64,000 nucleotides of DNA from assembly GCA_965227515.1 (NCBI GenBank), contig CBDDFZ010000001.1, forward strand, positions 1,673,600 through 1,737,599. The letters are read 5' to 3'. Positions 4,456-63,327 of this stretch are shown in pieces. The DNA is from Alphaproteobacteria bacterium. GTDB lineage: Bacteria; Pseudomonadota; Alphaproteobacteria; CALKHQ01. Position 1 is the first letter of the stretch. Each line of letters starts with the position of its first letter. The notes below the pieces were generated by a model. It was not told the origin of the DNA. It saw nothing but the letters and a program-made list of their open reading frames with translations, and searched no databases. The position numbers and the translations under genes were made by a program.

Positions 4456-4522
4456 GACGATTCCTCCCGTATCCAACTGCCCGTATCCAACTGCCCGTAT
4501 CCAACTGCCTGTGTCCGACGGC

Positions 4523-5407: not shown

Positions 5408-5527
5408 TGCTTCCTCCGGTTGGCGGGATTTGCGCCAACCGTAGAGCAATGTCACGCACCGATCAGTGATCTAGTCACGGAAGGTGGAACGTCGGTGACT
5501 AGATCGGGATCAGCTTACGCTGAATCT

Positions 5528-7753: not shown

Positions 7754-7756
7754 CGT

Positions 7757-48249: not shown

Positions 48250-49221
48250 CTAGTGATCCTCCACGAGGTTTTCGGTCGGCGCGGCGCCGGAGGCGATCAA
48301 CAGCCCACCGGTCAGGGCATCGGCGCGCGGCGTGATCATGCGCGGCTGGATGGTCTCGGGCAACCAGGGCTGCACCGCCGCCGCCATGCCGCCGTGCAGT
48401 GCCGCCGGCCACGCGCCGGCCGGGTCCAGGATCGCGATCAGCCGGCCGATCTCGCGCCCGGCCGCCGCCAGCAGCACCCGCGCGGCGGGATCGCTGTCCC
48501 CGGTCTCCGCGACCATGCGCGCGATGGCGGCGAAATCGGCGGGCTGGGCGCGGGTCAGCCACTCGATGATGGCGACGTGATCGTCGCCGCAATGGGCGCG
48601 CACCCGGCGCAGCAGGTCTGTATCGGGCGCATGGGCCATGCCGGCGGGCATGGCGTCGGCGTCCGCCGGTATCATCGGCGAGCCAGCGATGTCGTGGGCC
48701 AACCGGCCCTCATCCACGGCGCGGATTGCCAACGACAGCGCGCGATACCCTGTCCAGGCCCCACCGCCTTCGTCGCCGATGGGAAAGCCCCAGCCGCCGG
48801 CCTGGTGGCAGCCGCCGGCCTCGTCCAGCGCCATGGCATTGCTGCCGGTGCCGACGACCACCAGCACGCCGGGCTTGCCCTCGTGGGCGCCGATCAGCGC
48901 GATGTAGGCGTCTGAGACGATGTCGAGGCTGTGGGTGGGCGGCAGGGCGGCGATGAACTGCGCCCGCCGCTCCATGTTGCGATGGCCGGCCAGCGCGCAG
49001 ACGACGGCGGTGTCGGCCAGGGCGGTCTGGCCAAGCCCGGCGGTCGCGACAGCCTGCTCGGCCATCGATGTGACGGCGGCAATGGCGCCCTCGGCACTGA
49101 CGGTCAGGCTGGCCGGGCCGGCGGTCGCCTCGGCCAGCACGGTGCCGTCGCGATCGGCCAGCCGCGCGGTGGCGTGGCTCGCCCCGCCGTCCACCGCCAG
49201 CAGGAAGCGCGGTGCGCTCAT
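48250..49221 (-). CDS. BadF/BadG/BcrA/BcrD-type ATPase (N-acetylglucosamine-kinase-like ASKHA fold)
   Basis: 'LLAVDGGASHATARL' phosphate-1 and 'VVVGTGSNAM' motifs. Start ATG 49221 overlaps the stop of the upstream DmsC-like gene (ATGA). The N-terminal half of the 661-aa ORF-track ORF is a shadow frame and is rejected. Confidence 0.7.
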   Translation of the reverse strand: MSAPRFLLAVDGGASHATARLADRDGTVLAEATAGPASLTVSAEGAIAAVTSMAEQAVATAGLGQTALADTAVVCALAGHRNMERRAQFIAALPPTHSLDIVSDAYIALIGAHEGKPGVLVVVGTGSNAMALDEAGGCHQAGGWGFPIGDEGGGAWTGYRALSLAIRAVDEGRLAHDIAGSPMIPADADAMPAGMAHAPDTDLLRRVRAHCGDDHVAIIEWLTRAQPADFAAIARMVAETGDSDPAARVLLAAAGREIGRLIAILDPAGAWPAALHGGMAAAVQPWLPETIQPRMITPRADALTGGLLIASGAAPTENLVEDH

Positions 49222-50147
49222 GCCCGGGCCTCGCCGTAGTAGAGCGTGACCGTGTGCTTGGCCTCGGCGAAGAACAGCCAGCGGCCGACCAGGGTGCCGG
49301 CCAGGGCGCTGGCGAATGCGAGCAGGCTGAGCACGGCACCGAGCCAGCGGTCGCCTGTCGCCAGCACGATCACGGCCAAGAGGGCGGGCACCGCCGCAGC
49401 GGCCAGTAAAGCGATGACGCGCAGGCGCGTGGCGTGCCGGCGCGCGATCCGGAAGCCCATCTCCTTCATCAGGTAGTTGGGCTCGGTGTGCGGCGGCTCC
49501 AGCATGCGGACCTTTCCGATGTAGCCAAGGCCGGTGGCGGTACCGCTGTCGCTGATCGACGCGGTGCGGTCCATCCGCCACCAATAGGCGATCTGGAGGC
49601 CGCTTGTCAGCGCGGCGGCCGCGAGTGCCTGCCATGCCATCCAGGGCAGGTACTGGCCGAACAGCAGGGCCAGCAGCAGATAGGCCTGCGCGCCGGTCAG
49701 CCAGGCATACGCGAGATACAGCGCCGGGGTGTAGGCGTTGTGCCAGTGCCGCACCGTCTTCAACGAGGCATAGATCATCGCCGTGCACAGCACGGTGACG
49801 ACCGCCAGAACGGCTGTGACCGTGCCCAGGGCGCCGCTGAACTCCTCGCGGAACACCCACAGCGCGCCCAGCACTACGGCCGGCAGGAACGTGACCAGGG
49901 CGGCCACGCCCTCGCGCGACAGCCACGACGACCGCCATTGGCTGAGCGCCCGCCAGGCCCGCTCCGGATGGCCGAGGTGAAAGGTGGAGGACACCAGCCC
50001 GGCTGCGGCCAGCCCCAACGCCAGCGTGAAGCCAACGAGCCCGCTGCCCCATTCCGGTGCCAGCAGCCCCAGCGACAGCAGGAACAACAGCCCGTAGCCG
50101 GCACCCGACAGCGTCGTGAACACGATGATGGAAAGGGCGGGGTGCAT
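49218..50147 (-). CDS. DmsC/NrfD-type integral membrane anchor subunit (candidate SoeC)
   Basis: ~310-aa, 8-TM protein of the DMSO-reductase anchor family; start ATG 50147 (MHPALSII). Confidence 0.65.
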   Translation of the reverse strand: MHPALSIIVFTTLSGAGYGLLFLLSLGLLAPEWGSGLVGFTLALGLAAAGLVSSTFHLGHPERAWRALSQWRSSWLSREGVAALVTFLPAVVLGALWVFREEFSGALGTVTAVLAVVTVLCTAMIYASLKTVRHWHNAYTPALYLAYAWLTGAQAYLLLALLFGQYLPWMAWQALAAAALTSGLQIAYWWRMDRTASISDSGTATGLGYIGKVRMLEPPHTEPNYLMKEMGFRIARRHATRLRVIALLAAAAVPALLAVIVLATGDRWLGAVLSLLAFASALAGTLVGRWLFFAEAKHTVTLYYGEARA

Positions 50148-50281
50148 TCGGGCGGAACAGCCGGTCGGTGGATTGGATACCCTTCCTAGCAAATTGGCGG
50201 GCGTTGGCGCGACTGCCGTGTCGGGCCTGAGGCAATGCGCCTGTTTACGCCCATCAAGGTCTTCCCCGCAGGCGCGCCATC

Positions 50282-50302
50282 GTACATGTTCATGATATGT
50301 AC
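50282..50302. promoter_or_regulatory. Palindromic candidate operator GTACAT-N9-ATGTAC overlapping the start codon of the 50297 gene
   Basis: Read from sequence: gtacatgttcatgatatgtac. AT-rich in a high-GC context, in the divergent region between the soeC-like operon and the 50297 ORF. Confidence 0.3.
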
Positions 50303-50749
50303 ACTCTGAAGCCCGGCATCAAGCGCGATCCCATGCGGCGCTGGGCGTTGCCCGACCGTGTCTTCTTCGGCCATGGCGCCTGCCATATTCTGGCCGGTGC
50401 CTATCTGGCGAGGCCGCCATTGCCCGGCTTTCGTGCCGAGCGGATCGTTCCGCGCGACGACTTGGCGGGGAACCATATCTACCTCACCGACGGCGACATC
50501 GCCTTCGACTATCACGGCTATTCCGTGCGCCGGCGTCTGCTCGACCATCATCGCAAGGGCTGGTCGGGCCGATATCCCGGCTGGGATTGCGCGATCGAGG
50601 AGGTCGATTTCGACCTGCTGTGCACCGCGGCGCTGAACGGCCGCAAGATGCTGGGACCGGATCAGTACCTGTTCGATCCGGTGCCGCGCGCCCACCGCTT
50701 CATCGCCAGGATCGATCACACTCGCGCATCGAGTTGTGCGCAACGGTGA
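50297..50749 (+). CDS. Hypothetical protein (150 aa, His/Trp/Tyr-rich)
   Basis: GC3-rich codon usage consistent with a native gene; no family recognised. Confidence 0.5.
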   Translation: MYTLKPGIKRDPMRRWALPDRVFFGHGACHILAGAYLARPPLPGFRAERIVPRDDLAGNHIYLTDGDIAFDYHGYSVRRRLLDHHRKGWSGRYPGWDCAIEEVDFDLLCTAALNGRKMLGPDQYLFDPVPRAHRFIARIDHTRASSCAQR

Positions 50750-50760
50750 GCGCTCTCCAA

Positions 50761-51384
50761 CTAATCCTCTTGGGGCAGGAAGAACGCCTCGTCCGCCATT
50801 TCCGGCCGGGCGACGATGCTGTCCACCCGCCAGCGTCCGGCGGGCGATTCCCGGAGCAGGAAGGCAACCGGGCCCTCGTTGGTGTCGACCGCATGGACAA
50901 CAACCTGCCTGGCGCCGTCGCCCTGGGTGATCTCGTCGACCGACTGCACCTCAACCGGACCTGCAAAATCGATGGCGTGAATGCCGAGCTGATCGGCCGA
51001 CCACAGGATGACCTGAAAACTGTGGAACACGTCGATGCCAAGGAACGGCCTTTCATAGTCCATCGGGTGCTCATAGGGGCCGAACTGAGCGTCGAAGGCT
51101 TGCCTCTTCAGGTCCTGGTCGGCATCCGGGTCGAGGTAGTCGTCGAACTGGAACCGCTGAACGTGCATCATGAACCGCATCCTGGCCGTCGGGTCGAGCG
51201 CGAAGTAGGCAGCGATGAAATCGTCCTCGGCGAAGACTTCCGAGTAGGTCTGGACCGCCGCTTCGGGGGTCGAGAGGTCCAATACCTGCTCGACCCGCGA
51301 CATGGGAGGGCTCGCCATGGCGGCTGCCGCATATCCCGTGGCGGTCGCAGCGGCGATGGCAAGACTGAACGTTCGCAGGATCAT
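50761..51384 (-). CDS. Periplasmic hypothetical protein (signal peptide; 207 aa)
   Basis: N-terminal 'MILRTFSLAIAAATATGYAAAAMA' signal peptide, GGAG RBS; immediately downstream of the FeS subunit gene on the same strand. Confidence 0.6.
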   Translation of the reverse strand: MILRTFSLAIAAATATGYAAAAMASPPMSRVEQVLDLSTPEAAVQTYSEVFAEDDFIAAYFALDPTARMRFMMHVQRFQFDDYLDPDADQDLKRQAFDAQFGPYEHPMDYERPFLGIDVFHSFQVILWSADQLGIHAIDFAGPVEVQSVDEITQGDGARQVVVHAVDTNEGPVAFLLRESPAGRWRVDSIVARPEMADEAFFLPQED

Positions 51385-51406
51385 AGCGATCTCCGTTGAT
51401 CGGGGT

Positions 51407-52150
51407 TCAGGGCAGCGCCGACAGCGCGCGGTCGAGCCAGGCGAGGAAGCCCGTGGGCTTGGCGCCGCCATCCTCGGGCACTGGCGCGGGATCGCTGGCA
51501 TCGCGCGACACCTTCGGGCGCGGCGGCAGGTATTTGTTTGTTGGCCGGCAGCCCATTTCCGGCATCAGGTCATAGCCTTGGCGCTCGCGCACCAGTGACG
51601 AAACCGCCGAGTCCGGGTCGGCAAGGTCGCCGAAGTGCCGCGCGCCGGTCGGGCAGGCATTGACGCAGGCGGGCTGGCGCTGCGCCTCCGGGATCGTCTC
51701 GTTCTCGATGCGGTCGACGCAGAGCGTACATTTCTTCATCACCCCGCCCAGCGTGTCCATCTCGCGCGCGCCATAGGGGCAGGCCCAGGCACACAGCCCG
51801 CAACCGATGCACAAATCCTCCTCCACCAGCACGATGCCGTCGTCGGCGCGCCTGTAAGAGGCGCCGGTCGGGCACACGGTCACGCACGGCGCGTTGTCGC
51901 AATGCAGGCAGGAGCGCGGGAAATAGACCGTGCGGGCATGCGGGCCCTCGCCAACCTCGAACCCGTGCACCCGGTTCAGCCAGGCGCCGGCGACATCCTT
52001 GCCGTAGGCGTTCTCGTCGGACAGCGGCGCGACATGGCCGCCGGTGTTCCACTCCTTGCAACTGGTCACACAGGCCTGGCAGCCGACGCAGGTGTCGAGG
52101 TCGATGACCAGGCCCAGCTTGCGCGGTGGGGAGGGCGGCAGCGAGGTCAC
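51407..52150 (-). CDS. 4Fe-4S ferredoxin-type subunit of a DMSO-reductase-family enzyme (DmsB-like; candidate SoeB)
   Basis: Four Cys clusters ('CVGCQACVTSC', 'CLHCDNAPCVTVCP', 'CIGCGLCAWACP', 'CTLCVDR...CVNACP'); start overlaps the catalytic-subunit stop. Confidence 0.8.
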   Translation of the reverse strand: MTSLPPSPPRKLGLVIDLDTCVGCQACVTSCKEWNTGGHVAPLSDENAYGKDVAGAWLNRVHGFEVGEGPHARTVYFPRSCLHCDNAPCVTVCPTGASYRRADDGIVLVEEDLCIGCGLCAWACPYGAREMDTLGGVMKKCTLCVDRIENETIPEAQRQPACVNACPTGARHFGDLADPDSAVSSLVRERQGYDLMPEMGCRPTNKYLPPRPKVSRDASDPAPVPEDGGAKPTGFLAWLDRALSALP

Positions 52151-55050
52151 TTGCCGCCTCCCAGGACTGGGACATCCAGGTAACGCGCGGTCTGGGCGTG
52201 GCGGCTGAAGTCGGCGCCATAGCGCACGTCCTCAGGCGACGGCGGCAGGCCGGGCGGCAGCGGCAGGGCGTCGAAGCGCGGCTCGGTCGCCTCGGCACCC
52301 TCCGCCTTCTCGATCGAGACCCGCAGGTCGAACCATGCCGCCTGGCCGGTGATCGGGTCGGCGACCGGGCGCCGGTGGCCGTAGCCGTCGGCCGGGAGCC
52401 GCTCGTCGATCAGGTGGTTGAGCAGGAAGCCCTTCGTTGCCTCCGGCGCGTCCGGCTTCAGGTTCCAGGCCCCGGCTCGCTTGCCGATGGCGTTCCAGGT
52501 CCACACCGTCTGCTCGTTGACGCCGGCCATCCGCCTGACCTCAACCTTTATGCGGCCGTTGCGGCTGGAAAGCCACGCCCAGTCGCCGTCCTGCAGGTCG
52601 TGCCGGTCGGCCAGTGCGTGGGAGATGTAGAGCACGTTGCGCGCCATGATCTGGCGCAGCCACGCGTTCTGCGATCCCCAGGAGTGGTACATCGCCATCG
52701 GCCGCTGGGTGATGGCGTGGAGCGGATAGGCGGCCTCGTCGGTGGCCTGGTCCTCGTGCGGCGGGTGCCAGAACGGCAGCGGATCGAAATGGCGGGCGAT
52801 CCAGTCGCGCTGGTCATCCGGTGGCTGCACCGGGCCGTGGCCCTCGGCGGCGCGGCGGAAGCGCTGCAGCGGCTCGGCATAGAGCTGCAGGATCACCGGA
52901 TCGGGCGTGGCGACGAAGCCCATGCGCTCTGCATATTTCAGGTAGGCGGCGTTGCCGTGCTTGTAGAAGCGCTGGTCGTCGGCCAGCCGGTCGTGCCAGA
53001 AGCAGCCGTTCTCGATGTAGCGGTCGAGCTGGTCCGGATTGGGCGCGCCCTCGCCGTGCTGGGTGCCGCCTTCGCCGCGCCATCCGGCCAGGCTGCCGAT
53101 GCCGGGCCGGCGCTCGTGATTGACCAGATAGTCCGGGTAGCCGCCCGGATAGCGCGGGCCGCCGTCCGGCTCGGTCATGCCGGGCAGGCCTAGCCGCGCG
53201 CCCAGGTCCAGCAGCACGGACTGGAACGGCCGCACGTCGCGGTCGGGCTCGACGACCGGCTGCCGGATCGCGTCGGCGGGGCCGTCGGCCTCCGAAATCG
53301 GCCGGTCGAGCAGCGAGACGCAGTCCCATCGCTCCAGATAGGTGGTGTCCGGCAGCACGATGTCGGCGTAGGCCACCGTCTCCGAATAGTAGGCGTCGGA
53401 ATAGACGATGTGCGGGATCTTGTAGTCGCCGGTGGCCTCGTCCTTCGCCGCCAGCCGCTGCATGGTCTCGGCCGTGTTCATGGCCGAGTTCCAGGCCATG
53501 TTGGCCATGTACATGAACAGGGTGTCGATGGGGTAGGGGTCGCCGTCCACCGCGTTGCGGATCACCAGGTGCATCATGCCGTGGGCGGCAATCGGCGCCT
53601 CCCACGAATAGGCGCCGTCGATGCGCATCGGCCGGCCGTCGGCGTCGAGCAGCAGGTCCTCCGGCGCTTGGGGGAAGCCCAGCGGCGGACCCGGCAATGG
53701 CTGGCCGGCGCGGACCTGGTCGGGCTTGCCGGCGGGCAGCGGGCCGGGCGGGGCCGGGCGCGGGAACGGCGCCTTGTAGCGGAAGCCGCCGGGCGCATCG
53801 ATGCTGCCGAGCAGGACCTGCAACAAATGCAGCGCGCGGCAGGTGTGGAAACCGTTTGAGTGGGCGGAGATGCCGCGCATGGCGTGCATGGAGACCGGGC
53901 GGCCGACCATGCGCGAGTGGTGCTCGCCGGTCCAGTCGGTCCACGGCTGGTCGATGGCGATCTCATGGTCGAAGGCGGCCGCGATCAGCTCGTCGCCGAT
54001 GCGCCGGATGGTGGCTGCCGGCACGCCGCACTGGTCCGCCACCGCCTCCGGCGCATAGGCCGGGTCGAGATAGCGCTCGGCCAGCAGCTCCAGCACGGGC
54101 CGGGCCTGGCGGCCGTCCTCCAGCGTCACCGCGCCATGCAGGGCGGCCGCCATCGGCGCCTCGCGATGGGGCAGGGCGCGCTGGCGCAGGCGATGCCAGA
54201 CCTGCGGCTGGCCCTCGCCGTCGCGCGCGAACAGGCCATGGTCGGCGGCCTCGGGGTCCTCCACTACCAGCCAGCCGGCATTGGTGAACCTGAGCAGGTA
54301 GTCCAGGTCGATGCGGTGCTTCGACAGCACGTGATGGATCAGCGCCATCACGAACAGGCCGTCGCGGCCGGGCCGGATGCCGATCCATTCGTCGGCGATG
54401 GCGGAATAGCCGGTGCGCACCGGGTTGACCGAGACCACCTTGGCACCGCGCGCCTTCAGCTTGCCGAGCCCCATTTTGATCGGGTTGGAGTCGTGGTCCT
54501 CGGCAACCCCGAACATCAGCAGGTACTGGGTGCGCTCCCAGTCCGGCTCGCCGAACTCCCAGAACGAGCCGCCGATGGTGTAGATGCCAGCGGCCGCCAT
54601 GTTGACCGAGCAGAACCCGCCATGGGCGGCGTAGTTCGGGGTGCCGAACTGGCTCGCCCACCAGCCGGTCAGCGCCTGGCTCTGGTCACGCCCGGTGAAG
54701 AACGCGAGCTTCTTCGGGTCGTCATCGCGTATCGCGCCCAGCCAGCCGGCGACGGTGTCCAGCGCCTCGTCCCACTCGATTTCCTGGAACTCGCCCTTGC
54801 CGCGCTCGCCGACCCGCTTCAGCGGCTTGGTCAGCCGCGCCGGCGAGTTGTGCTGCATGATGCCGGCCGAGCCCTTGGCGCACAGTACGCCCCGGTTCAC
54901 CGGGTGGTCGGGGTTGCCCTCAATGTAGCGGACGCGCCCGTCCTTCAGGTGCACTTTGATGCCGCAGCGGCAGGCGCACATATAGCAGGTGCTGGTCTTG
55001 ACCTCGTCACCGATCGGCTGGTTGACCGGGATGGGGCGCCTACTCGTCAT
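52147..55050 (-). CDS. Molybdopterin (bis-MGD) oxidoreductase catalytic subunit lacking a Tat signal (candidate sulfite dehydrogenase SoeA)
   Basis: 967 aa; N-terminal FeS motif 'CYMCACRCG' with no twin-arginine leader, so cytoplasmic orientation; co-located with B (FeS) and C (NrfD-like) subunits as in SoeABC. Confidence 0.7.
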   Translation of the reverse strand: MTSRRPIPVNQPIGDEVKTSTCYMCACRCGIKVHLKDGRVRYIEGNPDHPVNRGVLCAKGSAGIMQHNSPARLTKPLKRVGERGKGEFQEIEWDEALDTVAGWLGAIRDDDPKKLAFFTGRDQSQALTGWWASQFGTPNYAAHGGFCSVNMAAAGIYTIGGSFWEFGEPDWERTQYLLMFGVAEDHDSNPIKMGLGKLKARGAKVVSVNPVRTGYSAIADEWIGIRPGRDGLFVMALIHHVLSKHRIDLDYLLRFTNAGWLVVEDPEAADHGLFARDGEGQPQVWHRLRQRALPHREAPMAAALHGAVTLEDGRQARPVLELLAERYLDPAYAPEAVADQCGVPAATIRRIGDELIAAAFDHEIAIDQPWTDWTGEHHSRMVGRPVSMHAMRGISAHSNGFHTCRALHLLQVLLGSIDAPGGFRYKAPFPRPAPPGPLPAGKPDQVRAGQPLPGPPLGFPQAPEDLLLDADGRPMRIDGAYSWEAPIAAHGMMHLVIRNAVDGDPYPIDTLFMYMANMAWNSAMNTAETMQRLAAKDEATGDYKIPHIVYSDAYYSETVAYADIVLPDTTYLERWDCVSLLDRPISEADGPADAIRQPVVEPDRDVRPFQSVLLDLGARLGLPGMTEPDGGPRYPGGYPDYLVNHERRPGIGSLAGWRGEGGTQHGEGAPNPDQLDRYIENGCFWHDRLADDQRFYKHGNAAYLKYAERMGFVATPDPVILQLYAEPLQRFRRAAEGHGPVQPPDDQRDWIARHFDPLPFWHPPHEDQATDEAAYPLHAITQRPMAMYHSWGSQNAWLRQIMARNVLYISHALADRHDLQDGDWAWLSSRNGRIKVEVRRMAGVNEQTVWTWNAIGKRAGAWNLKPDAPEATKGFLLNHLIDERLPADGYGHRRPVADPITGQAAWFDLRVSIEKAEGAEATEPRFDALPLPPGLPPSPEDVRYGADFSRHAQTARYLDVPVLGGGK

Positions 55051-55059
55051 CGGGAGAGG

Positions 55060-55386
55060 TCACGCGCGACCGGTCTTCTCGCCGTTGGCGAACAGGCGGT
55101 TGCCCTGTTCGTCGATGATCTGCTTGCCCTTCGAGATGGCGAAGCTCTCCGCCTCGTCCTTGGACGAGAAGGTGTCTGCGCGCTGGTACTCGCGTTCCAG
55201 GTTTCCGTCATCGCCGCCGGTCTTGACGATGACCCCGGCAAGCCGCCACTGGCTGCCTGCCTTGATCGGGGCGGGGTAGATCGTCAGCCCGGCGTGCTCC
55301 ACCGGATCGCCGCGCCCGGCCGGGCCGCCGTCACCGGATTTCTCGCCACCGCCGCCGCCGAACAGTTTGGATAGGATGCCTGCCAT
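55060..55386 (-). CDS. Small HlyU-family protein (alphaproteobacterial 'transcriptional activator HlyU' family)
   Basis: 108 aa with 'LSKLFGGGGGE', 'QWRL', 'RADTFSSKDEAESFAISKGKQIIDEQGNRLF' pattern recalled for this family; 9 nt upstream of the catalytic-subunit ATG on the same strand. Confidence 0.5.
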   Translation of the reverse strand: MAGILSKLFGGGGGEKSGDGGPAGRGDPVEHAGLTIYPAPIKAGSQWRLAGVIVKTGGDDGNLEREYQRADTFSSKDEAESFAISKGKQIIDEQGNRLFANGEKTGRA

Positions 55387-55556
55387 GCACGCAGTCTAGC
55401 CCGTGCGGCCGGCGCGCGCCAAGACCTGCTTGGAACCCTGGATCGCACCAACCATGATTTGGCCATTTCCGTGCGGCAAAGTGGTTGCTGGCGTGGGCAG
55501 TGTGGCCCATCGTTCTGCCCCATCGTCCGGCCCAAAATGACATAGGCGAGTTTCGC

Positions 55557-56063
55557 ATGGGTACTTTCATCAAGTTCGGTGTCTTCGCAGCCATCGCGTT
55601 CGGCGTGCCGATCGGGCTGGTCGTGTGGGCCATCTATGGCGACGGGCAGTTCGCGCTGTATGCCGGGCTCGGCGGCGGCATCGCGTTCGGCGTCATCATG
55701 GTGGTTGTCATGGCGGCGGTCAGCGCGCGCACCGCGAAGAACCGCCCCGCGCTCGACGACGGCGAGGTGCTGATCAAGGAGGACGCCGCCAACCATTTCG
55801 TCGGCATGGTTGCGGTCGGCGGCTGGCTGTTCCTGACCAACCGCCGGCTGCACTTCAAGTCGCACGCGGCCAACACCCGCAACCACGAGACATCCTATCC
55901 ACTGGCGGAGATTACGGGCCTGGCGGCGACGCGGACCATGGGCCTTGTCCCCAACAGCTTCGTGGCGACCATGGCCTCCGGCGCGGACGAGAAATTCGTG
56001 GTGCGGGGCCGCGCCAAGTGGGTCGCCGCCGTGGAAAACGCGCGGTCAGCCGCTGCCGGCTAG
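55557..56063 (+). CDS. Membrane-anchored bacterial PH (GRAM/YokE-like) domain protein
   Basis: Two N-terminal TM helices then a bPH-like domain ('FLTNRRLHFKSH'). Confidence 0.55.
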   Translation: MGTFIKFGVFAAIAFGVPIGLVVWAIYGDGQFALYAGLGGGIAFGVIMVVVMAAVSARTAKNRPALDDGEVLIKEDAANHFVGMVAVGGWLFLTNRRLHFKSHAANTRNHETSYPLAEITGLAATRTMGLVPNSFVATMASGADEKFVVRGRAKWVAAVENARSAAAG

Positions 56064-56435
56064 GACGCGCTCGGGCTGCGGCATGGGGTTGCGGCGGTCC
56101 TCCGTCGCCTGGGCGGCGAAATCGCGCAATTCCTCGATGGAGAAGTGCGGTTGGAACACGCGCTGGCCGTCGAACCGGAAATGCTCGCGCAGCCGATGCT
56201 CGTGGCTGGTCTTCAGGGCCAGGAACATGGTCTGCACCACCTCGCTGTTGGTGGCGTGGCGGCTGATGTACCACTTGCGGCCGGCCTGCTCGGCCGGGGC
56301 GCCGGTGTGGATGTCGGGCTCGTCGTAGCGGGCCTGGATGAAGTGGCCGTCGCCCATCGGCTCGACCCGCCAACGGTATTCGGGGTAGTCGACGCGCCGG
56401 GTCAGATCGACCAGGTGCTCAAGTCTGTGGTCCAT
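56046..56435 (-). CDS. Hypothetical protein
   Basis: 130-aa ORF from ATG 56435 with native-like codon usage; no family recognised. Confidence 0.4.
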   Translation of the reverse strand: MDHRLEHLVDLTRRVDYPEYRWRVEPMGDGHFIQARYDEPDIHTGAPAEQAGRKWYISRHATNSEVVQTMFLALKTSHEHRLREHFRFDGQRVFQPHFSIEELRDFAAQATEDRRNPMPQPERVLAGSG

Positions 56436-56525
56436 ATGCGTGTGCCTTCTGCGTTGCCGCTCTTCACACATAGGCACACACGGTCGTGGCAACAATTGGG
56501 TCGGGTTTCGGTGAGACGTCCAACC

Positions 56526-57464
56526 TCACACCGGGATCAGCGTGATGCCGTCGTTGGTCGCATGGTACTCCGGCAGGATGAACACCATCACGTCGCTGCT
56601 GTTGTAGACGTATGTGTAGGACTCGGTGCCGTTGCCGCCGGTGATGAAATAGCTGCCCTGGATGGAGTCGCCATCCAGGAACGCGTAGTTTTCGATGATA
56701 TCGGGCACGCCGTCGGTGCCGGCGATGAAATAGTCAGCGCCTGCGCCGCCCACCAGCATGTCGGTGCCGTTGCCGCCGTCATAGGTGTCGTCGCCGTCGC
56801 CGCCGTGCAGGTAGTCGGTGCCGTCGCCGCCGAACATCATGTCATTGCCGCCGCCGCCCCACAGGCGATCGTCGCCGGCGTCGCCGTACAGAATGTCGTT
56901 ACCCACCGCGTCGTAGCCGTCGCCGAACAGGCGGTCGTTGGCCTCGCCGCCGTGGATCGTGTCGTGGCCGTACATGCCGTAGATCCAGTCCTCGCCGCCG
57001 CCGCCGTCGATGGTGTCGTTCCAATAGCCGCGGGTGTAGGCCAGTTCATGGTGGTCGCCGTTGATCCAGTCGTGGTCGTCGCCGCCGAATATCCGGTCGG
57101 CGCCGGCGCCGCCATAGAGCTTGTCCTCGCCATCGCCGCCGTCGATCAGGTCGTTCCCGGCGCCACCGAACACCGTGTCGTCGCCGTTTCCGCCATAGAG
57201 CGAGTCGTTGCCGGCCATGCCGTCGATGGTGTCGTGCCCGTCCTCGCCATGGAGCGTGTCGTCGTCCTGCAGGAACGGGTTGGGCGTGCCGTTGCCGATG
57301 ATGATGTCGTTGAACGGCCCGCCATGGATTTCATCGTCCCCGGCGCCGCCGATGAACGTGCCGCCGATCTGGTCGTATTGCGGCTCGGGCGGCGCCTCGC
57401 GCGTATCGGGCGTCCACCGGAGATCGGTCTGGAGGGAACTGGGCGGGGTGCTGCTGCGGGCCAT
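56526..57464 (-). CDS. RTX calcium-binding repeat protein (hemolysin-type GGxGxD nonapeptide repeats)
   Basis: More than 15 tandem 'GGAGNDxLxGG'-type repeats; no signal peptide, consistent with a T1SS substrate. No T1SS genes in the window. Confidence 0.8.
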   Translation of the reverse strand: MARSSTPPSSLQTDLRWTPDTREAPPEPQYDQIGGTFIGGAGDDEIHGGPFNDIIIGNGTPNPFLQDDDTLHGEDGHDTIDGMAGNDSLYGGNGDDTVFGGAGNDLIDGGDGEDKLYGGAGADRIFGGDDHDWINGDHHELAYTRGYWNDTIDGGGGEDWIYGMYGHDTIHGGEANDRLFGDGYDAVGNDILYGDAGDDRLWGGGGNDMMFGGDGTDYLHGGDGDDTYDGGNGTDMLVGGAGADYFIAGTDGVPDIIENYAFLDGDSIQGSYFITGGNGTESYTYVYNSSDVMVFILPEYHATNDGITLIPV

Positions 57465-57763
57465 GATATCGCTCCGGAGTCGTGCGTTGCCGGTAGGTCG
57501 CAGCCGGCGTGGGCCCGGTTCATTGCCTCTTGCGGGCGCGCACGCGTGCCTTCGATGTTGGACACATCGCGCTCTGGGACCATATTGTCGGATGCGATTA
57601 GCGGCGATTCCGCCGTTCGCGGGCGCTTGACCGTGAAAATCGGGCCCTCGGCCGTTAAGATTCAGGCTCGACCCGACGCTGGTCTGTTTGTATCAAATGG
57701 GGATGTGTCCGGCAGGTAGGCCGGATGGCATCATCAAGCCCGGTGGGGAAGAAAAGGGGAGTC

Positions 57764-57925
57764 ATGCCGGCTCTGAAAAACCAGCCACCTCGTGGATTGA
57801 CCGGTGCGCCTCTTGTCAGCTTCGCTGCGCCGGCATGTGCGGCTCTTGGGTCCGCGCATGTGCCTGCATGCCATCGCCCATACCATCGCCACGTGGGTTT
57901 GCGAGGCGCCTGGATAGACGCATGA
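57764..57925 (+). CDS. 53-codon upstream ORF translationally coupled (ATGA) to the E1-KASIII fusion gene
   Basis: Strong RBS AAGGGGAG immediately upstream of ATG 57764; stop TGA 57923..57925 overlaps the downstream ATG 57922..57924; Cys/His-containing peptide. Confidence 0.35.
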   Translation: MPALKNQPPRGLTGAPLVSFAAPACAALGSAHVPACHRPYHRHVGLRGAWIDA

Positions 57926-60900
57926 ACAAGCAGGTCACCACCAAGCGCGGCCGCCTGAACATCGCCGAAGGCAGCGCCCCCACACAGCCCGACGCGCAGG
58001 AGCTTTCGCACCTGTACCGCGCGATGCTGACGGCGCGCGAGATCGACCGGGTCGAGGATGTGGCGACCCGGCGCGGCGAGGCGTTCTTCCACGTCTCCGG
58101 CAAGGGGCACGAGGGCTCGGCGGCGCTGGCGCTGCACCTGACCAACGACGACTGGCTGCACTGCCACTATCGTGACAAGGCGCTGATGGTGGCACGCGGC
58201 ATCACCGCGCGCGCGTTCTTCGACGGCTTCTATTGCAAGGACGCCTCGCATTCGCGCGGGCGCCAGATGTCGGCCCATATGTGCGATGCCTCGCTGCGCG
58301 TTGCCAGCGTGTCCGGCCCGGTCGGCAATGGCGCGTTGCATGCTGTGGGCATGGCGCTGGCCGGCAAGGACATGGAGACCCGGCCCATCGTGCTGTTCTC
58401 CTGCGGCGACGGCACCACGCAGGAGGGCGAGTTCCTGGAGTCGTGCGCCGAGGCGGCGCGCGCGGAAGCCCCGGTGCTGTTCTTTGTCGAGGACAATGGC
58501 TGGGCGATCTCCACGCCGACCGCCGGCAAGACGTTCTATGCCCTGCATGCGCAGCGGCCGGACGCCTTCCACGGTATCCCGATCCACCGCATCGACGGGC
58601 GCGACGCGATCCAGGCGTGGCGCGAGCTCGGGCCCATCGTTGCGCGCATGCGGCGCACCCGCCAGCCCGCGATCGTCGTGTTCCAGGTCGCGCGCATCGC
58701 CAACCACACCAACGCCGACGACCAGTCGATCTACCGCGACGCGGCCGACATCAAGCTGGCCGAGGAAACCTGCGACCCGATCCCGATCCTGGAAGACCAG
58801 CTCCTGGACATGGGGTGGAGTGCCGCCGATCTGGCGGCGGCCAAGGACGAGATCGCGCGCCAGGTGGCGGAGGCCGATGAGGCGGCGGCCTTCGGGCCCG
58901 ACCCCGAGCCGATGCTGACGGCCGACGTGGCGCCGTCGGCTGCGGTCGCGGAGGCGTTGCAGCCCGGTCGTGCGCGCAAGCCCGCCGCGGCGCCGGCGCC
59001 CGCCGCGGTGCCGAACACGCCGCAGACCATGGGCGAGGCGATCCGTGCCGTGCTGCGCGGCCGGCTGGCCGACGACCCGCGCGTCTATCTGTGGGGCGAG
59101 GACATCGAGGACCCGAAGGGCGACGTATTCGGCGTAACCAAGGGCCTCAGCACCCAGTTCCCGAAGCGCGTGGTCAACGCGCCGCTGACCGAGTCCACCA
59201 TCGTCGGCGTCGCCATCGGCCGGGCGATGGCCGGCGAGCGCCCGGTGGCGTTCCTGCAGTTCGCCGATTTCCTGCCACTTGCCTACAACCAGATCGTCAG
59301 CGAGCTGGGCAGCATGGCGTGGCGCACCGACGGCGCCTTGACCGCGCCTGTTATCATCATGGTGCCGTGCGGCGGCTATCGCCCCGGTCTGGGGCCGTTC
59401 CACGCCAGTTCGTTCGAATCGCTGATGACCCACACGCCGGGCATCGACGTGGTGATGCCGTCGACAGCGGAGGATGCGGCCGGCCTGCTGAACGCCGCCT
59501 TCGAGTCAACCCGGCCGACGGTGTTCTTCTATCCCAAGAGCTGCCTCAACGACCCGCGCGGCGCGATGACCGGCGATGCCGGCCAGGTCAGGCTGACGCC
59601 CGGATCGGCGCGCAAGGTGCTGTCGGGCCGCGACCTGACAATGGTCGGCTGGGGCAACACCGTGCGGCTGTGCGAGCAGGCTGCCGAGGCGCTGGAGAAA
59701 GCCGGTGTCGAGGCCGAGGTGTTGGACCTGCGCAGCCTGGGGCCCTGGGACAAGCGGGCGGTGCTGTCGTCGGCGGAGACCAGCGGCCGGCTGCTGGTGG
59801 TGCACGAGGACAACCACACCAACGGCTTCGGCGCCGAGATTCTGGCGACGGTCGGCGAGCAGTGCCGCACCCATGTGGCCATGCGCCGGGTGACCCGGCC
59901 CGACACCTATGTGCCGTGCAATTTCGCCAACCAGATCGAGGTGTTGCCGTCGTTCAAGCGGGTGCTGGAAACGGCGGCCGACATGCTGGACATCGACGTC
60001 GAATGGACGCCGCCGCCGGCCGCCGAGGAAGGCATCGTGCTGGTCGAGGCCATCGGGTCCGGCCCGACCGACGAGACCGTCGACGTGGTCGAGCTGATGG
60101 TCGAGGTCGGCCAGACTGTCGAGCGCGGCGAGGAGATCGCGGCCCTTGAGGCGATCAAGAGCGTGTTCGAGCTGACCTCGCCCGCCTCCGGCGTGATTGA
60201 GGAGATCGTCGTCGGGATCGGCGAGACGGTGCCGGTCGGTGCGCCGCTGATGAAGATCCGCACCGACGACACCACCCAGCGCGCCAAGCCCTTGACCCAC
60301 GAGGCGCCCGGCACGCCCACCCTGACCCGGCGCGCCAAGCCGGCGGCACCGGCTGTTGCCGGCAGGGGCGAGGGCGCCGCGGCCCAGCCGGCCGGCACGC
60401 TCAGGGTCGGGCTGTCGCAGGTCGCCACCGTCACCGGCAGCCGGGTGGTGCCGAACGAGGAACTGGTACAGGGCCGCACCGACGACACCTACCGCGATGC
60501 GGAGAAGCTGACCGGCATCCGCGCCCGCCATTGGGCGGCGGAGGGCGAGACGGTGCTGTCGCTCGGCGTGCGCGCGGTGCGTGCGGCGCTGGAGGCGAAC
60601 GGGCTCACCGCCGACGACCTCGACCTCGTGATCTGCAGCACGACCACGCCAGATCAGGTGACGCCCTCCGTGGCCTATCGCATCCTGCGCGATGTTGCCG
60701 GCGAGCGCGGCAACCCGGCGGTGGCCGCCTATGACATCAATGCGGCATGCTCGGGCTATCTCTACGCGCTGCAGGCCGCGCACGACTTCCTGCAGAACCA
60801 GCCGCAAGGCCGTGTGCTGGTGGTGACGGCCGAGGTGCTGTCGCGGCTGCTGGACCGCGACGACCCGTCGACCGTGCTGGTGTTCGGCGACGCGGCGTCG

Positions 60901-61353
60901 GCCACCGTGGTCTATGGCGACGCGCATTTCGATGGCGCTGCCGCGCGCCTGTTCCGCCCTGATATCTCCGGAAAGAGCGACGACCGCAACGCGCTGACCG
61001 TGCCGGTGCCAGGCCAGGGCTATGTGCGGATGGACGGCCAGCGGGTGTTCCGCGAGGCGGTGCGCGCCATGGTCGGCAGCCTGAACCGGGTCTGCGCCGG
61101 CCAGGGGCTGGGGCTCGGCGACCTGGACATGGTGGTGCCGCACCAGGCCAACCAGCGCATCATCGACGCCATCGCGCAGCGCACCGGCGCCAACGCCTAT
61201 TCCAACATCAAGCATTTCGGCAACACGTCGTCGACCAGCATTCCGTTGTGCCTGGCCGAGGTGCTGCCCGACGCGCCGGCCGGCCAGCGGCTGGGCCTGT
61301 GCGCCTTCGGCGGCGGCTATACCTACGCGGCCGCGGTGCTGGAAACCGTCTAG
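57922..61353 (+). CDS. Single-polypeptide fusion: TPP-dependent 2-oxoacid dehydrogenase E1 alpha + E1 beta + lipoyl-type domain + 3-oxoacyl-ACP synthase III (FabH-like)
   Basis: One uninterrupted frame. E1-alpha TPP motif 'GDGTTQEG...VEDNGWAIS'; E1-beta transketolase-like Pyr and C-terminal domains; lipoyl/biotinyl-like barrel with Lys in 'LEAIKSVFELTSPASGVIEEI'. KASIII follows, with Cys 'AACSGY', His 'VPHQANQRI', Asn 'GNTSS'. Ala/Pro-rich linkers lie between modules. Confidence 0.8.
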   Translation: MNKQVTTKRGRLNIAEGSAPTQPDAQELSHLYRAMLTAREIDRVEDVATRRGEAFFHVSGKGHEGSAALALHLTNDDWLHCHYRDKALMVARGITARAFFDGFYCKDASHSRGRQMSAHMCDASLRVASVSGPVGNGALHAVGMALAGKDMETRPIVLFSCGDGTTQEGEFLESCAEAARAEAPVLFFVEDNGWAISTPTAGKTFYALHAQRPDAFHGIPIHRIDGRDAIQAWRELGPIVARMRRTRQPAIVVFQVARIANHTNADDQSIYRDAADIKLAEETCDPIPILEDQLLDMGWSAADLAAAKDEIARQVAEADEAAAFGPDPEPMLTADVAPSAAVAEALQPGRARKPAAAPAPAAVPNTPQTMGEAIRAVLRGRLADDPRVYLWGEDIEDPKGDVFGVTKGLSTQFPKRVVNAPLTESTIVGVAIGRAMAGERPVAFLQFADFLPLAYNQIVSELGSMAWRTDGALTAPVIIMVPCGGYRPGLGPFHASSFESLMTHTPGIDVVMPSTAEDAAGLLNAAFESTRPTVFFYPKSCLNDPRGAMTGDAGQVRLTPGSARKVLSGRDLTMVGWGNTVRLCEQAAEALEKAGVEAEVLDLRSLGPWDKRAVLSSAETSGRLLVVHEDNHTNGFGAEILATVGEQCRTHVAMRRVTRPDTYVPCNFANQIEVLPSFKRVLETAADMLDIDVEWTPPPAAEEGIVLVEAIGSGPTDETVDVVELMVEVGQTVERGEEIAALEAIKSVFELTSPASGVIEEIVVGIGETVPVGAPLMKIRTDDTTQRAKPLTHEAPGTPTLTRRAKPAAPAVAGRGEGAAAQPAGTLRVGLSQVATVTGSRVVPNEELVQGRTDDTYRDAEKLTGIRARHWAAEGETVLSLGVRAVRAALEANGLTADDLDLVICSTTTPDQVTPSVAYRILRDVAGERGNPAVAAYDINAACSGYLYALQAAHDFLQNQPQGRVLVVTAEVLSRLLDRDDPSTVLVFGDAASATVVYGDAHFDGAAARLFRPDISGKSDDRNALTVPVPGQGYVRMDGQRVFREAVRAMVGSLNRVCAGQGLGLGDLDMVVPHQANQRIIDAIAQRTGANAYSNIKHFGNTSSTSIPLCLAEVLPDAPAGQRLGLCAFGGGYTYAAAVLETV

Positions 61354-61835: not shown

Positions 61836-62639
61836 CTATTCCGATCCGCGGGCTGAGATGCCGCCGTCCACCGGCAGGCAGGCGCCGGTGATGTAGCTGG
61901 CCTCGTCGGACGCCAGGAACAGGATCGCGGCAGCAATCTCGCGCGGCCTTGCCTGCCGCTTCATCAGGCCCGGCCCGCCCTCGTACGGGCGTTCGGTGAC
62001 GGCAGGGTCGATGGGCGCGCCGCGTGCCGCCGCCCGCTTCAGGTGGAACTCTGTCAGGGTGGCGCCCGGCAGCACGGCGTTGACCCGGATGCCGGCTTCG
62101 GCATGGTCGCAGGCCAGCGAGCGGGTCATGCCGAGCATGCCGGCCTTCATGGTGTCGTATTGCAGCATGCCCGGGCGGCCCGACTGCGCGTGCACCGACG
62201 AGACGTTGACGATGGTGCCGCCGGCCGGCATCAGCGGAATGACGTGCTTCGCGGCCAGCGCGGCGCCGCGCAAGTTGACGGCGTAGATCGCATCCCAGCT
62301 TGCCTGGTCCGCCTCGGTCACCGGGCCATAGGCGCGGATGCCGGCGTTGTTGACCAGCACGTCGACCCGGCCGTGGCGCTCCGCGCATTGGTCGGCGAGC
62401 GCTTCGATCGCGGCCTCGTCCGCGACATCGACCTCCGCCGGCCAGACGCGCGCGCCAACGTCTTCGCCCACGGCCGCGCCGCACTCGTGGGCAATCGTCT
62501 CAGCCGTTTCTTGTGCGTCGCTGAAGTAACGATCGACCAGAACGACCGTCGCCCCCTCGGCCGCGAACATCATCGCTGTCGCCCGGCCAATCCCCGCGCC
62601 GGCGCCTGTTACAACCGCAATCCTGCCGTCCAGCTTCAT
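61836..62639 (-). CDS. SDR family oxidoreductase
   Basis: 'VTGAGAGIGRA' cofactor motif, 'NNAG', catalytic 'YDTMKAG'; start refined to ATG 62639. Confidence 0.85.
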   Translation of the reverse strand: MKLDGRIAVVTGAGAGIGRATAMMFAAEGATVVLVDRYFSDAQETAETIAHECGAAVGEDVGARVWPAEVDVADEAAIEALADQCAERHGRVDVLVNNAGIRAYGPVTEADQASWDAIYAVNLRGAALAAKHVIPLMPAGGTIVNVSSVHAQSGRPGMLQYDTMKAGMLGMTRSLACDHAEAGIRVNAVLPGATLTEFHLKRAAARGAPIDPAVTERPYEGGPGLMKRQARPREIAAAILFLASDEASYITGACLPVDGGISARGSE

Positions 62640-62754
62640 CAATTGCCTCGCTCTTTCTGTCCTTCGATGGCGTTCGGATAACTTCCGATCATTTGACATT
62701 CTTTCTTGGCCGTGCCTACGCTCGATCATCGGGTTTGCAGAAGGCGTTCCCCCA

Positions 62755-63327
62755 ATGGCCGACTTCCCGATTCCGATTGGCGTGGACCGCATGCTACGCG
62801 ACATCGCGGAGGGCATAGGCGGCGCCGCGCGCATACTCCCCACGGTATCCCGGTCCGAGGTCGGAGCGGTTGCCATGCGCCGCGCCACGGTCGCCATCGA
62901 CTTCGAGCTTAGCAGCGCCGCAAAGCGGACAGATGACAGCATCGGTCTGGGCGCAAAGACCTTCCTGTTCGGTTTCGGTGCGTCGACGGAAACGACCGAG
63001 ACGAAGGTGCTGAACCACGGCCGGATCGAGATGGAGATCGTCGCCATCGTCGAACCGGAGGAGGGTGAGCGACCGAAGACCGCCACGCCGGCTCAACCCG
63101 GCCCGCCCGTGAAGGCGCCAACTCCCCTGAGCGCAGATCAGATTCGCCAGGCCCTGGCGATAATCCAGGGGGAACTCCACAACCTTCCCCTGGACGAGGA
63201 GGCACGCGGGAAAATCGAGGCCAAGATCGCGGAAATACACGCTGCGATATCGGCTGGCGACCTGCACCTCGCCAATGAATTGCTGCAATATATCAAGGAC
63301 ATTGTGCAGGAAGTCCTGAACCCCTGA
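62755..63327 (+). CDS. Hypothetical protein with N-terminal Trypco2-like (trypsin-co-occurring domain 2) beta-rich domain, Pro-rich linker and C-terminal helical domain
   Basis: The 'ATVAIDFELSSAAKR...GLGAKTFLFGFGAS...TKVLNHGRIEMEIVAI' pattern resembles Trypco2 from memory; not verified. Confidence 0.45.
   Translation: MADFPIPIGVDRMLRDIAEGIGGAARILPTVSRSEVGAVAMRRATVAIDFELSSAAKRTDDSIGLGAKTFLFGFGASTETTETKVLNHGRIEMEIVAIVEPEEGERPKTATPAQPGPPVKAPTPLSADQIRQALAIIQGELHNLPLDEEARGKIEAKIAEIHAAISAGDLHLANELLQYIKDIVQEVLNP

Follow-up and report, generated by a model that had tools for sequence, protein, structure and literature searches.

The locus described here carries, on the minus strand of the window (the whole 64,000-nucleotide stretch of DNA that was analysed), three genes predicted to code for a membrane-bound sulfite:quinone oxidoreductase of the SoeABC type. 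The first, soeA (52147-55050), produces a 967-aa Mo-bisPGD catalytic subunit, recognized from its Pfam domains and from homologues named SoeA; soeB (51407-52150) produces a 247-aa four-cluster ferredoxin subunit, with Fer4_11 and related domains; and soeC (49218-50147) codes for a 309-aa quinone-interacting membrane anchor of the NrfD/DmsC type. The longest open reading frame of soeC is 49218-50192 on the minus strand, the start at 50147, which gives 309 aa, being that of the public gene call. A small gene of family PF10115, which carries the name "HlyU" and codes for 108 aa, precedes soeA (55060-55386, minus strand), and two further genes lie between soeB and soeC: inserted gene 1 (50761-51384, minus strand), for a 207-aa secreted protein with the signal peptide MILRTFSLAIAAATATGYAAAAMA, and inserted gene 2 (50297-50749, plus strand), for a conserved alphaproteobacterial hypothetical protein of 150 aa.

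As read in the sequence, soeA and soeB overlap through a GTGA start/stop, and the soeC stop overlaps through ATGA with the start of a BadF/BadG-type ATPase gene (48250-49221). The latter belongs to the cluster found 3′ of soeC, which at the domain level is lva-like (BadF-like/ACAD/APH/DUF6285/acyl-CoA-synthetase). The genes named in a preliminary description of this DNA are all present and intact, according to ORF, Pfam and NCBIfam evidence, and the six gene calls of the locus are identical to those of the public collection. The same description joined soeC to the lva-like genes, and this also holds: the ATGA overlap points to a translational link, and the downstream genes are borne out at the domain level.

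Gene order between soeB and soeC

The gap between soeB and soeC is 1259 nt long and holds two unrelated genes, one of them oppositely oriented, whereas in the 68 of 80 related loci where it could be measured its median is 4 nt and the longest is 796 nt; the displacement of soeC is thus as unusual as had been supposed. The contiguous order soeA-soeB-soeC is typical of the family, though not strictly defining, and is not found here. Other rare interruptions are an SDR-like ORF between soeB and soeC in one related locus (L015) and 619 nt between soeA and soeB in another (L076), and no soeB-soeC fusion occurs among the related loci. Both inserted genes, as well as the PF10115 gene, are missing from all 80 related soe loci.

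The most likely start of inserted gene 1 is 51384, a position 22 nt past the soeB stop that has GGAG 7 nt before it, and the gene is co-oriented with soeB; its GC3 is 0.81, compared with 0.88-0.92 in the soe genes. An unrelated secreted-protein gene following soeB had been reported, and the 207-aa ORF with its signal peptide agrees with this. The product matches no Pfam or NCBIfam family; its own family is sparse (113 representatives at E<=1e-3), and one relative is 87% identical. Close relatives were also sought in two metagenome scans, which returned only sequences of 23-31% identity, none of them near soe genes. Weak, sub-threshold hints of DUF4864 were seen among the relatives of this protein.

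The region preceding soeC had been taken for a 600-bp divergent stretch; it really holds the conserved plus-strand inserted gene 2, which is convergent with inserted gene 1 (11-bp spacer) and divergent from soeC (149-bp spacer, 50148-50296). The product of inserted gene 2 has 544 homologues, the best 120 listed being 64-79% identical and none of these having a Pfam family; its AF2 model (pLDDT 90.8) gave no significant fold match in the PDB. The genomic contexts of the homologues are variable. A distance of 3 kb separates one of them, in Oricola (L087), from a soeA homologue, and another (L093) adjoins a TauE gene. A soe linkage of inserted gene 2 was considered and rejected, since no such link appears in three further contexts or in any of the 80 SoeA loci; the two cases are therefore treated as coincidence.

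The inserted segment has a GC content of 0.59-0.66 and a GC3 of about 0.80, lower than its flanks. Signs of a mobile element were sought around the 1.26-kb insert: the repeats found there were short and no more frequent than expected by chance, and no direct or inverted repeats flank it. The arrangement is best explained as a local reshuffling of genes specific to this lineage, with no dedicated function.

As regards expression, a promoter consensus scan of 48.9-55.7 kb detected no promoter, and no sigma-70 consensus in the 149-bp spacer; a terminator scan of the same region found a single terminator-like site, inside soeC, which is fewer than the shuffled expectation, and none between soeAB and soeC; between 48 and 57 kb, an Rfam scan yielded no credible Moco riboswitch or other leader. 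As soeC is co-oriented with soeAB, and the scan placed no terminator between them, read-through from soeAB is possible. A dedicated promoter for soeC could lie only in the 149-bp spacer, and soeC is probably expressed in one of these two ways.

It might be argued that the interruption has uncoupled soeC from soeAB, with a complex that is poorly assembled or decaying, or with soeC regulated together with the lva-like operon. The long gap with its oppositely oriented gene, the ATGA overlap of soeC with the BadF-like gene and the outcome of the promoter scan are all in keeping with this view; however, none of the three ORFs is truncated, all keep the residues invariant in the family and a normal codon bias (GC3 0.88-0.92), and read-through into the co-oriented soeC offers a route to joint expression. 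Moreover, the accession numbers suggest that in Beggiatoa soeA does not adjoin soeBC (PMC11507549), so that a split soe may have precedent. Uncoupling is thus considered rather unlikely, and a rearranged locus that still encodes a functional SoeABC is preferred. What is unusual here is the local gene order, the enzyme family itself being already known; the locus indicates that soe operons tolerate interruption, and pathway-calling rules that demand a contiguous soeABC would miss this case.

Identity of the enzyme and orientation of the complex

SoeA contains the Molybdop_Fe4S4 (PF04879), Molybdopterin (PF00384) and Molydop_binding (PF01568) domains. Its FeS (FS0) motif is C22-x2-C25-x3-C29-x27-C57, and Cys147, which aligns with Cys173 of PsrA (2VPW), is the putative Mo ligand. 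The protein is 67-72% identical to its best 120 database homologues, many of which carry the JGI name "sulfite dehydrogenase (quinone) subunit SoeA", and 62-70% identical to the proteins encoded in the 80 related genomic loci, where SoeB and SoeC homologues follow directly; the family is very large and tightly conserved, with a mean column identity of 76%. In two of these loci, L030 (Rhodobacterales) and L041, pta lies directly 5′ of soeA; Ruegeria pomeroyi SPO3560-3557 has been described as a pta-soeABC arrangement (PMC4334477), and this synteny indicates that the SoeA family includes the Roseobacter-type pta-soeABC clusters. The orthology of SoeA rests on family-level identity, on automated pipeline naming and on synteny.

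Other families of molybdoenzymes fit less well. The NCBIfam models of PhsA (236 bits, cut-off 694, residues 18-257 only), DmsA (135 bits, cut-off 778), TtrA (108 bits, cut-off 1750) and ArrA (89 bits, cut-off 1600) all score SoeA below their cut-offs, as is also the case for NarG, and these identities were rejected. In a comparison with the PDB, the best solved relative of SoeA is PsrA (2VPW, E 3e-41), with partial similarity. Acetylene hydratase and pyrogallol transhydroxylase, which had been named beforehand as examples of clades that would speak against a SoeABC, fit less well too: among solved structures, the match to the former is much weaker than that to PsrA, and the latter is absent at E<=1e-10. 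The assignment to SoeABC originally proposed is therefore supported by the domains and cysteine motifs expected of three CISM-type subunits, by the 62-72% identity to the SoeA-named family and by the failure of rival families to reach their cut-offs.

SoeB contains four groups of cysteines of the [4Fe-4S] type (residues 21-31, 81-93, 114-124 and 141-166) and is 57-74% identical to the products of the soeB genes adjoining soeA in related loci. SoeC matches PF04976 (DmsC, E 2e-17) and PF03916 (NrfD) and has eight predicted hydrophobic transmembrane helices in an N-in/C-in arrangement, in agreement with the anchor type initially recognized; its identity to SoeC of related loci is 38-55% (mostly 44-55%), nearly always over about 300 residues or more.

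Export signals and topology were judged by inspection and by the positive-inside count. SoeA has a hydrophilic stretch of 21 residues ahead of C22, and its frame meets a TGA three codons 5′ of the ATG, so no Tat leader is possible; the N-terminus contains "SRR", with no hydrophobic stretch after it on inspection. A Tat leader upstream of the called soeA start, raised earlier as the observation that would contradict a cytoplasmic enzyme, is thus precluded by a closed frame. SoeB has 20 residues ahead of its first cysteine and, on inspection, no export signal, and the view that both the A and B subunits lack a signal finds support in these short hydrophilic N-termini. The SoeA homologues have similarly short, non-hydrophobic N-termini wherever the FeS motif was read within the first 40 residues (70 of the 80 loci). 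In SoeC, 18 Lys and Arg residues are counted on the N-terminal side and one on the other, a bias which indicates that the large loops are cytoplasmic; in the SoeC family the means are 16.7 and 1.0, with the same direction in 69 of 69 sequences. The bias agrees with the orientation predicted in the literature, where SoeC is inverted relative to PsrC (PMC8076601). Placement of the Soe catalytic dimer on the cytoplasmic (N) side is thus a well-supported prediction.

The characterized SoeABC enzymes are those of Allochromatium vinosum (Alvin_2491-2489), R. pomeroyi (SPO3559-3557) and Aquifex aeolicus (PMC8076601, PMC6335251, PMC4334477). As predicted from sequence, the locus resembles them in its three kinds of subunit (A with Mo-bisPGD and a single FeS cluster, B a ferredoxin with four clusters, C an anchor resembling NrfD), in the lack of export signals on A and B, in the cytoplasmic large loops of the anchor and in the order A, B, C on one strand; it differs from them in the 1259 nt and two unrelated genes, one antisense, that part soeB from soeC, and in the overlap of soeC with a downstream catabolic cluster. 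With PsrABC of Thermus thermophilus (2VPW) it shares the A/B/C architecture and the alignment of the FS0 motif and of the Mo-ligand cysteine, but the similarity is partial and SoeA is about 200 residues longer. In addition, the Tat system exports PsrA, which faces the periplasm, and the PsrC termini are on the P-side (PMC8076601), whereas SoeA here has no Tat leader and SoeC has the inverted topology. A periplasmic thiosulfate or polysulfide reductase of the PhsABC/PsrABC type was accordingly rejected, on the PhsA score (236 against 694 bits) and on the absence of a Tat leader.

These results make it well supported that the three genes represent an intact SoeABC-type sulfite:quinone oxidoreductase, and we estimate at about 85% the probability that the locus encodes a functional membrane-bound enzyme of this kind, with its catalytic side predicted to be cytoplasmic. 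The substrate, the reaction direction and the route of the electrons are taken from the enzymes of A. vinosum, R. pomeroyi and A. aeolicus. By this analogy, SoeA would oxidize cytoplasmic sulfite to sulfate at its Mo-bisPGD site, where Cys147 would be the Mo ligand, and the electrons would travel by way of its [4Fe-4S] cluster and then the four clusters of SoeB to reach quinone at a site on the cytoplasmic side of SoeC.

The analogy could also mislead: SoeA might be a member of the family with another substrate or direction, for example a cytoplasmic sulfur-oxyanion reductase, the SoeABC label being an annotation transfer. NCBIfam has no equivalog for SoeA and its nearest models are reductases (PhsA, DmsA), its nearest relative of solved structure is a polysulfide reductase, and the names of the homologues come from automated pipelines. 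Against this stand the 62-72% full-length identity to a tightly conserved family that includes the Roseobacter-type pta-soeABC (PMC4334477) and the cytoplasmic orientation, which sets Soe apart from periplasmic reductases (PMC8076601). A different substrate or direction is hence judged improbable, and sulfite oxidation remains the preferred function.

One source of sulfite in the window could be a persulfide dioxygenase (PDO; 4523-5455), which matches the dioxygenase half of Blh (E 1e-110) and would work with a type III SQR-like protein fused to a TIGR01244 sulfurtransferase domain (2791-4590); a SulP permease (975-2771) is also present. The SQR and persulfide dioxygenase pair noticed at first sight is borne out at the domain level, and the metabolic link then proposed between PDO and SoeABC is supported by the PDO domain match. 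In Beggiatoa, SoeABC was not detected aerobically despite PDO activity (PMC11507549), so that a coupling of PDO to Soe cannot be assumed. SoeABC stands beside a module for sulfide oxidation (SQR-like protein, PDO, SulP), and the annotation of this genome should name a probable cytoplasmic sulfite-oxidizing SoeABC instead of a generic "molybdopterin oxidoreductase"; the understanding of sulfite oxidation is unchanged by the locus.

The PF10115 gene upstream of soeA

The protein encoded upstream of soeA matches Pfam PF10115 with 82.5 bits (cut-off 27), over model positions 2-91 of 91, and the NCBIfam CV_2116 domain with 41 bits, below the cut-off of 58. It belongs to a strongly conserved family of 198 homologues, the best 120 listed being 50-69% identical. 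True HlyU, from Vibrio, belongs to the winged-helix regulators of the ArsR/SmtB type (Pfam HTH_5); unlike it, the protein has no HTH_5 match. In the AF2 model (pLDDT 81.6), disordered Gly-rich residues 1-22 are followed by beta-sheet and a long C-terminal helix, and the only credible fold match is CV_2116 (2KON), which is likewise made of beta-sheets and a C-terminal helix; no HTH protein was among the matches. A phmmer search against PDB sequences gave no match, CV_2116 being found by the fold search only. CV_2116 of Chromobacterium violaceum is a functionally uncharacterized protein encoded by a prophage (PMC3397530). A transcriptional regulator of the HlyU type was consequently rejected, since only PF10115 was matched, no HTH_5/ArsR domain is present and the fold is a beta-sheet with one long helix. 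The "HlyU-family" designation given at first proves to be a Pfam label only, and neither the modelled structure nor the gene context supports calling this protein an "HlyU family transcriptional regulator".

In known systems soeA is preceded by pta, as in Ruegeria, or by a regulator, whereas here the PF10115 gene takes this position. Its reported distance of 9 nt is confirmed by the sequence (TGA CCTCTCCCG ATG); the TGA is in frame with soeA and lies in a leaky UGA-C context, and the 9-nt spacer has no Shine-Dalgarno motif ahead of the soeA ATG. Co-translation of the two genes, as suggested from this 9-nt spacing alone, appears overstated. These same features, together with the strong conservation of the family, would be expected if the protein were a dedicated regulator, a chaperone or a fourth Soe subunit translationally coupled to SoeA, but no PF10115 gene was found within 8 kb of soeA in any of the 80 loci (tblastn and an HMM from 26 homologues, even at E<=10), the four contigs examined for three homologues show unrelated contexts with no soe genes near, and the protein has no DNA-binding domain and CV_2116 (PMC3397530) as its only fold match; such a dedicated role is therefore very unlikely. 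Still more doubtful is a recruitment in this lineage, through which the PF10115 protein would have become a SoeA-linked partner, either made in a fixed ratio through termination-reinitiation or occasionally fused to SoeA by UGA-C read-through; if true, this partnership would provide the first functional context for an uncharacterized, conserved alphaproteobacterial protein family.

Gene content and family assignment of the soe locus

Between 49.2 and 55.4 kb of the window, whose GC content is about 68%, codon-position GC and ORF analysis delimited five genes on the (-) strand and one on the (+) strand. The soeA gene (52147-55050, -; 967 aa) codes a molybdopterin subunit with Molybdop_Fe4S4, Molybdopterin and Molydop_binding domains, soeB (51407-52150, -; 247 aa) a Fer4_11-type ferredoxin and soeC (49218-50147, -; 309 aa) a membrane anchor with DmsC and NrfD matches; the ORF calls and the Pfam/NCBIfam domains thus place the soe genes where the preliminary description had located them. 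The other three are a PF10115 gene (55060-55386, -; 108 aa), named “HlyU” in Pfam, and two genes inserted between soeB and soeC, coding a secreted protein of 207 aa (50761-51384, -) and a protein of 150 aa (50297-50749, +), neither with a Pfam/NCBIfam match. All six products are identical to existing public predictions by exact look-up, and each is a singleton at 90% identity, indicating that no close relative has been sequenced.

The locus is read as a bona fide member of the known SoeABC family, a reading to which we assign a probability of about 85% for family and mechanism; the predicted complex is probably functional, while confidence in its physiological coupling is lower. The assignment, already proposed in the preliminary description, is supported at the sequence level by 62-72% identity to the SoeA-type family, by synteny with SoeB and SoeC, and by the failure of SoeA to reach the cut-off of any rival model. 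More than 8000 database homologues of SoeA were found; the best 120 share 67-72% identity with it across 94-100% of its length (in most cases 97-99%), and many of these 120 bear the JGI name “sulfite dehydrogenase (quinone) subunit SoeA”. At least 596 relatives were found in a scan of one genome per species; the best 80 loci (62-70% identity) are labelled Alphaproteobacteria almost throughout, with a few MAGs labelled otherwise, and in nearly all of those sufficiently long soeA is directly followed by a SoeB homologue (57-74%) and then a SoeC homologue (38-55%). In two of the 80 (L030, 7021-7989; L041, 6816-7964), pta lies immediately 5′ of soeA, the same arrangement described for the Ruegeria pomeroyi genes SPO3560-SPO3557 (PMC4334477).

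Among the curated molybdoenzyme models, SoeA scored 236 bits with PhsA (cut-off 694), 135 with DmsA (778), 108 with TtrA (1750) and 89 with ArrA (1600). Of the solved structures, Thermus PsrA comes closest (E 3e-41), with a partial match in which the FS0 cysteines align and SoeA Cys147 falls on the PsrA Mo ligand, Cys173. Acetylene hydratase is a far weaker match (E 2e-19) and pyrogallol transhydroxylase is absent at E<=1e-10 among the solved-structure matches; SoeA therefore does not appear to side with either of these two enzymes, which the preliminary description had named as examples of clades that would speak against SoeABC.

Sequence inspection agreed with the earlier view that SoeA lacks a Tat leader: an in-frame TGA lies three codons 5′ of the soeA ATG and closes the frame (TGA CCT CTC CCG ATG), the stretch before the first FeS cysteine is just 21 residues long and hydrophilic (MTSRRPIPVNQPIGDEVKTST), and no hydrophobic region follows the N-terminal “RR”, which is itself not conserved. 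The N-termini of SoeA homologues are similarly short and hydrophilic, with the conserved motif (V/I)(D/E)TSPxVxDEVKxTTCYMC, and SoeB, which contains four Cys groups, has 20 residues ahead of its first cluster motif. SoeC has eight hydrophobic helices, with 18 Lys+Arg in the N-terminal-side loops against 1 in the opposite-side loops; the corresponding averages for 69 sequences of the family are 16.7 and 1.0, with the same direction in 69/69. From these simple counts, made under the positive-inside rule rather than with trained predictors, a cytoplasmic location is predicted for the SoeC termini and for its two large loops (residues 56-79 and 188-243), an orientation inverted relative to PsrC, as proposed for SoeC (PMC8076601).

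The displaced soeC and the PF10115 gene

The displacement of soeC is indeed unusual: 1259 nt separate it from soeB, whereas among the 68 related loci in which the limits of soeB and soeC could be set, the median gap is 4 nt and the largest 796 nt. The gap does not contain the 600-bp divergent region described earlier, but two genes, one of them on the (+) strand. The 207-aa gene, preceded by GGAG at 7 nt from its ATG, starts 22 nt past the soeB stop; its family is sparse (113 representatives). The 150-aa protein belongs to a highly conserved family without a Pfam/NCBIfam model, with 544 homologues, of which the best 120 are 64-79% identical to it; its confident AF2 model (pLDDT 90.8) gave only weak, non-significant PDB matches (E ~1), to papain-like cysteine-protease effectors, among them AvrPphB, SseI and PaTox. 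This family is alphaproteobacterial, with invariant Cys29, His60 and Asp71.

In all 80 related loci, both genes are absent up to 8 kb from soeA. A homologue of the 150-aa gene was seen in Oricola cellulosilytica (L087, 53-6474), 3 kb away from a soeA homologue of 61% identity, and another adjoins a TauE-family gene in a second genome (L093, 7077-8522); both are probably coincidences, as the other contexts of these homologues are unrelated. The inserted segment is poorer than the soe genes in GC (0.59-0.66) and in GC3 (about 0.80, versus 0.88-0.92), and shows no flanking repeats as a mobile-element signature. The soeC gene is full length and has kept its orientation; an ATGA overlap joins its stop to the start of a BadF/BadG-type ATPase gene, followed by genes for an acyl-CoA dehydrogenase, an APH-family kinase, DUF6285 and an acyl-CoA synthetase, a set that resembles lvaC, lvaA, lvaB and lvaE of Pseudomonas putida. 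A consensus scan of the soe region found no promoter or terminator; soeC may be expressed either by read-through from soeAB or from a promoter of its own within the 149-bp spacer.

Although soe clusters are rarely interrupted, the window is not the only case: the 796-nt extreme comes from a Hyphomicrobiaceae MAG with an SDR-like ORF inserted between soeB and soeC (L015, 11608-12381), a soeA-soeB gap of 619 nt occurs in a Rhizobiaceae MAG (L076, 10817-11440), and accession numbers suggest that Beggiatoa soeA does not adjoin soeBC (PMC11507549). The unusual features are real and best explained by local rearrangement, the arrangement being idiosyncratic and lineage-specific.

The co-oriented genes immediately 5′ of soeA also differ between relatives (L030 and L041; L003, L018 and L023, about 7440-7980): besides phosphate acetyltransferase, they code, as judged by eye, a ~160-aa universal-stress-like protein, a SulP-like permease-like membrane protein and an EamA-like membrane protein. 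In L041 a ~620-aa gene, by eye a thiamine-diphosphate enzyme, precedes pta, an arrangement that would agree with the xsc-pta-soeABC order of Ruegeria. Regulator genes in divergent orientation, by eye MocR/GntR-like or LysR-like, recur in seven loci each.

The small gene reported 9 nt 5′ of soeA was recovered as a solid PF10115 member with 198 homologues, of which the best 120 share 50-69% identity with it; its HlyU label did not point to a regulator. The protein lacks an HTH domain, and its AF2 model (pLDDT 81.6) comprises a beta-sheet and a single long helix after a Gly-rich, disordered N-terminus, with CV_2116 (2KON) as the sole credible structural match; the authors of that structure called the fold novel and could assign no function (PMC3397530). 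On a metagenomic contig (L083, 4611-5315), an ArsR/SmtB (HTH_5) regulator gene lies directly 5′ of the PF10115 gene; as genuine HlyU belongs to this family, such a neighbour may be the origin of the name, and the “HlyU” element is a naming artefact rather than evidence of a regulator. On the four contigs inspected (three homologues), L083 included, the PF10115 gene has unrelated neighbours, and the family HMM matched 0/80 SoeA loci, even at E<=10; the juxtaposition with soeA is thus specific to this genome.

The 9-nt spacer has no Shine-Dalgarno sequence, and termination-reinitiation coupling from PF10115 to soeA is plausible. The PF10115 TGA (stop plus spacer, 55051-55062, -) shares the soeA reading frame, three codons 5′ of the ATG, and the next base is C (UGA-C context). 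Low-level read-through is conceivable; it would yield a fusion of 108 + 4 + 967 residues, a fusion seen in none of the 80 relatives. The residual novelty of the locus is small and lies in a possible PF10115-SoeA link, which has only a slim chance of being real. Upstream (55387-55420, -), TTGGCG and TAGACT, separated by an 18-nt spacer, end 6 nt before the PF10115 ATG (8/12 match, below the scan threshold); the gene has no Shine-Dalgarno sequence and its transcript is possibly leaderless.

Sulfur-metabolism context and neighbouring genes

The sulfite source earlier noticed in the same window was found at domain level. The 4523-5455 (-) product gave a match to the dioxygenase portion of the Blh sulfurtransferase/dioxygenase (E 1e-110), and 2791-4590 (-) codes a type III SQR-like flavoprotein with a TIGR01244 (DUF442) sulfurtransferase domain joined to its N-terminus; together they would therefore provide a cytoplasmic sulfite source about 45 kb from soe. 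The persulfide dioxygenase (PDO) may be metabolically coupled to Soe; in aerobic Beggiatoa, PDO activity occurs without detectable SoeABC (PMC11507549). The TIGR01244/DUF442 domain, normally joined to the dioxygenase in Blh, is here carried by the SQR-like protein, the dioxygenase being a separate gene, and the pair is flanked by a SulP permease (975-2771) and a Crp/Fnr regulator.

Just upstream of the soe region, 56526-57464 (-) codes a 312-aa protein consisting mostly of RTX calcium-binding nonapeptide repeats; it is separated from the PF10115 gene by a pair of small ORFs that match no family (55485-56063, +; 56046-56495, -). Further on, a 1221-aa ORF (57688-61353, +) joins a 2-oxoacid dehydrogenase E1 (E1_dh, Transket_pyr, Transketolase_C), a lipoyl/biotinyl domain and a KAS III (ACP_syn_III and its C-terminal domain) in an unusual multi-domain fusion, and an SDR/enoyl-ACP-reductase-like gene lies nearby (61836-63086).
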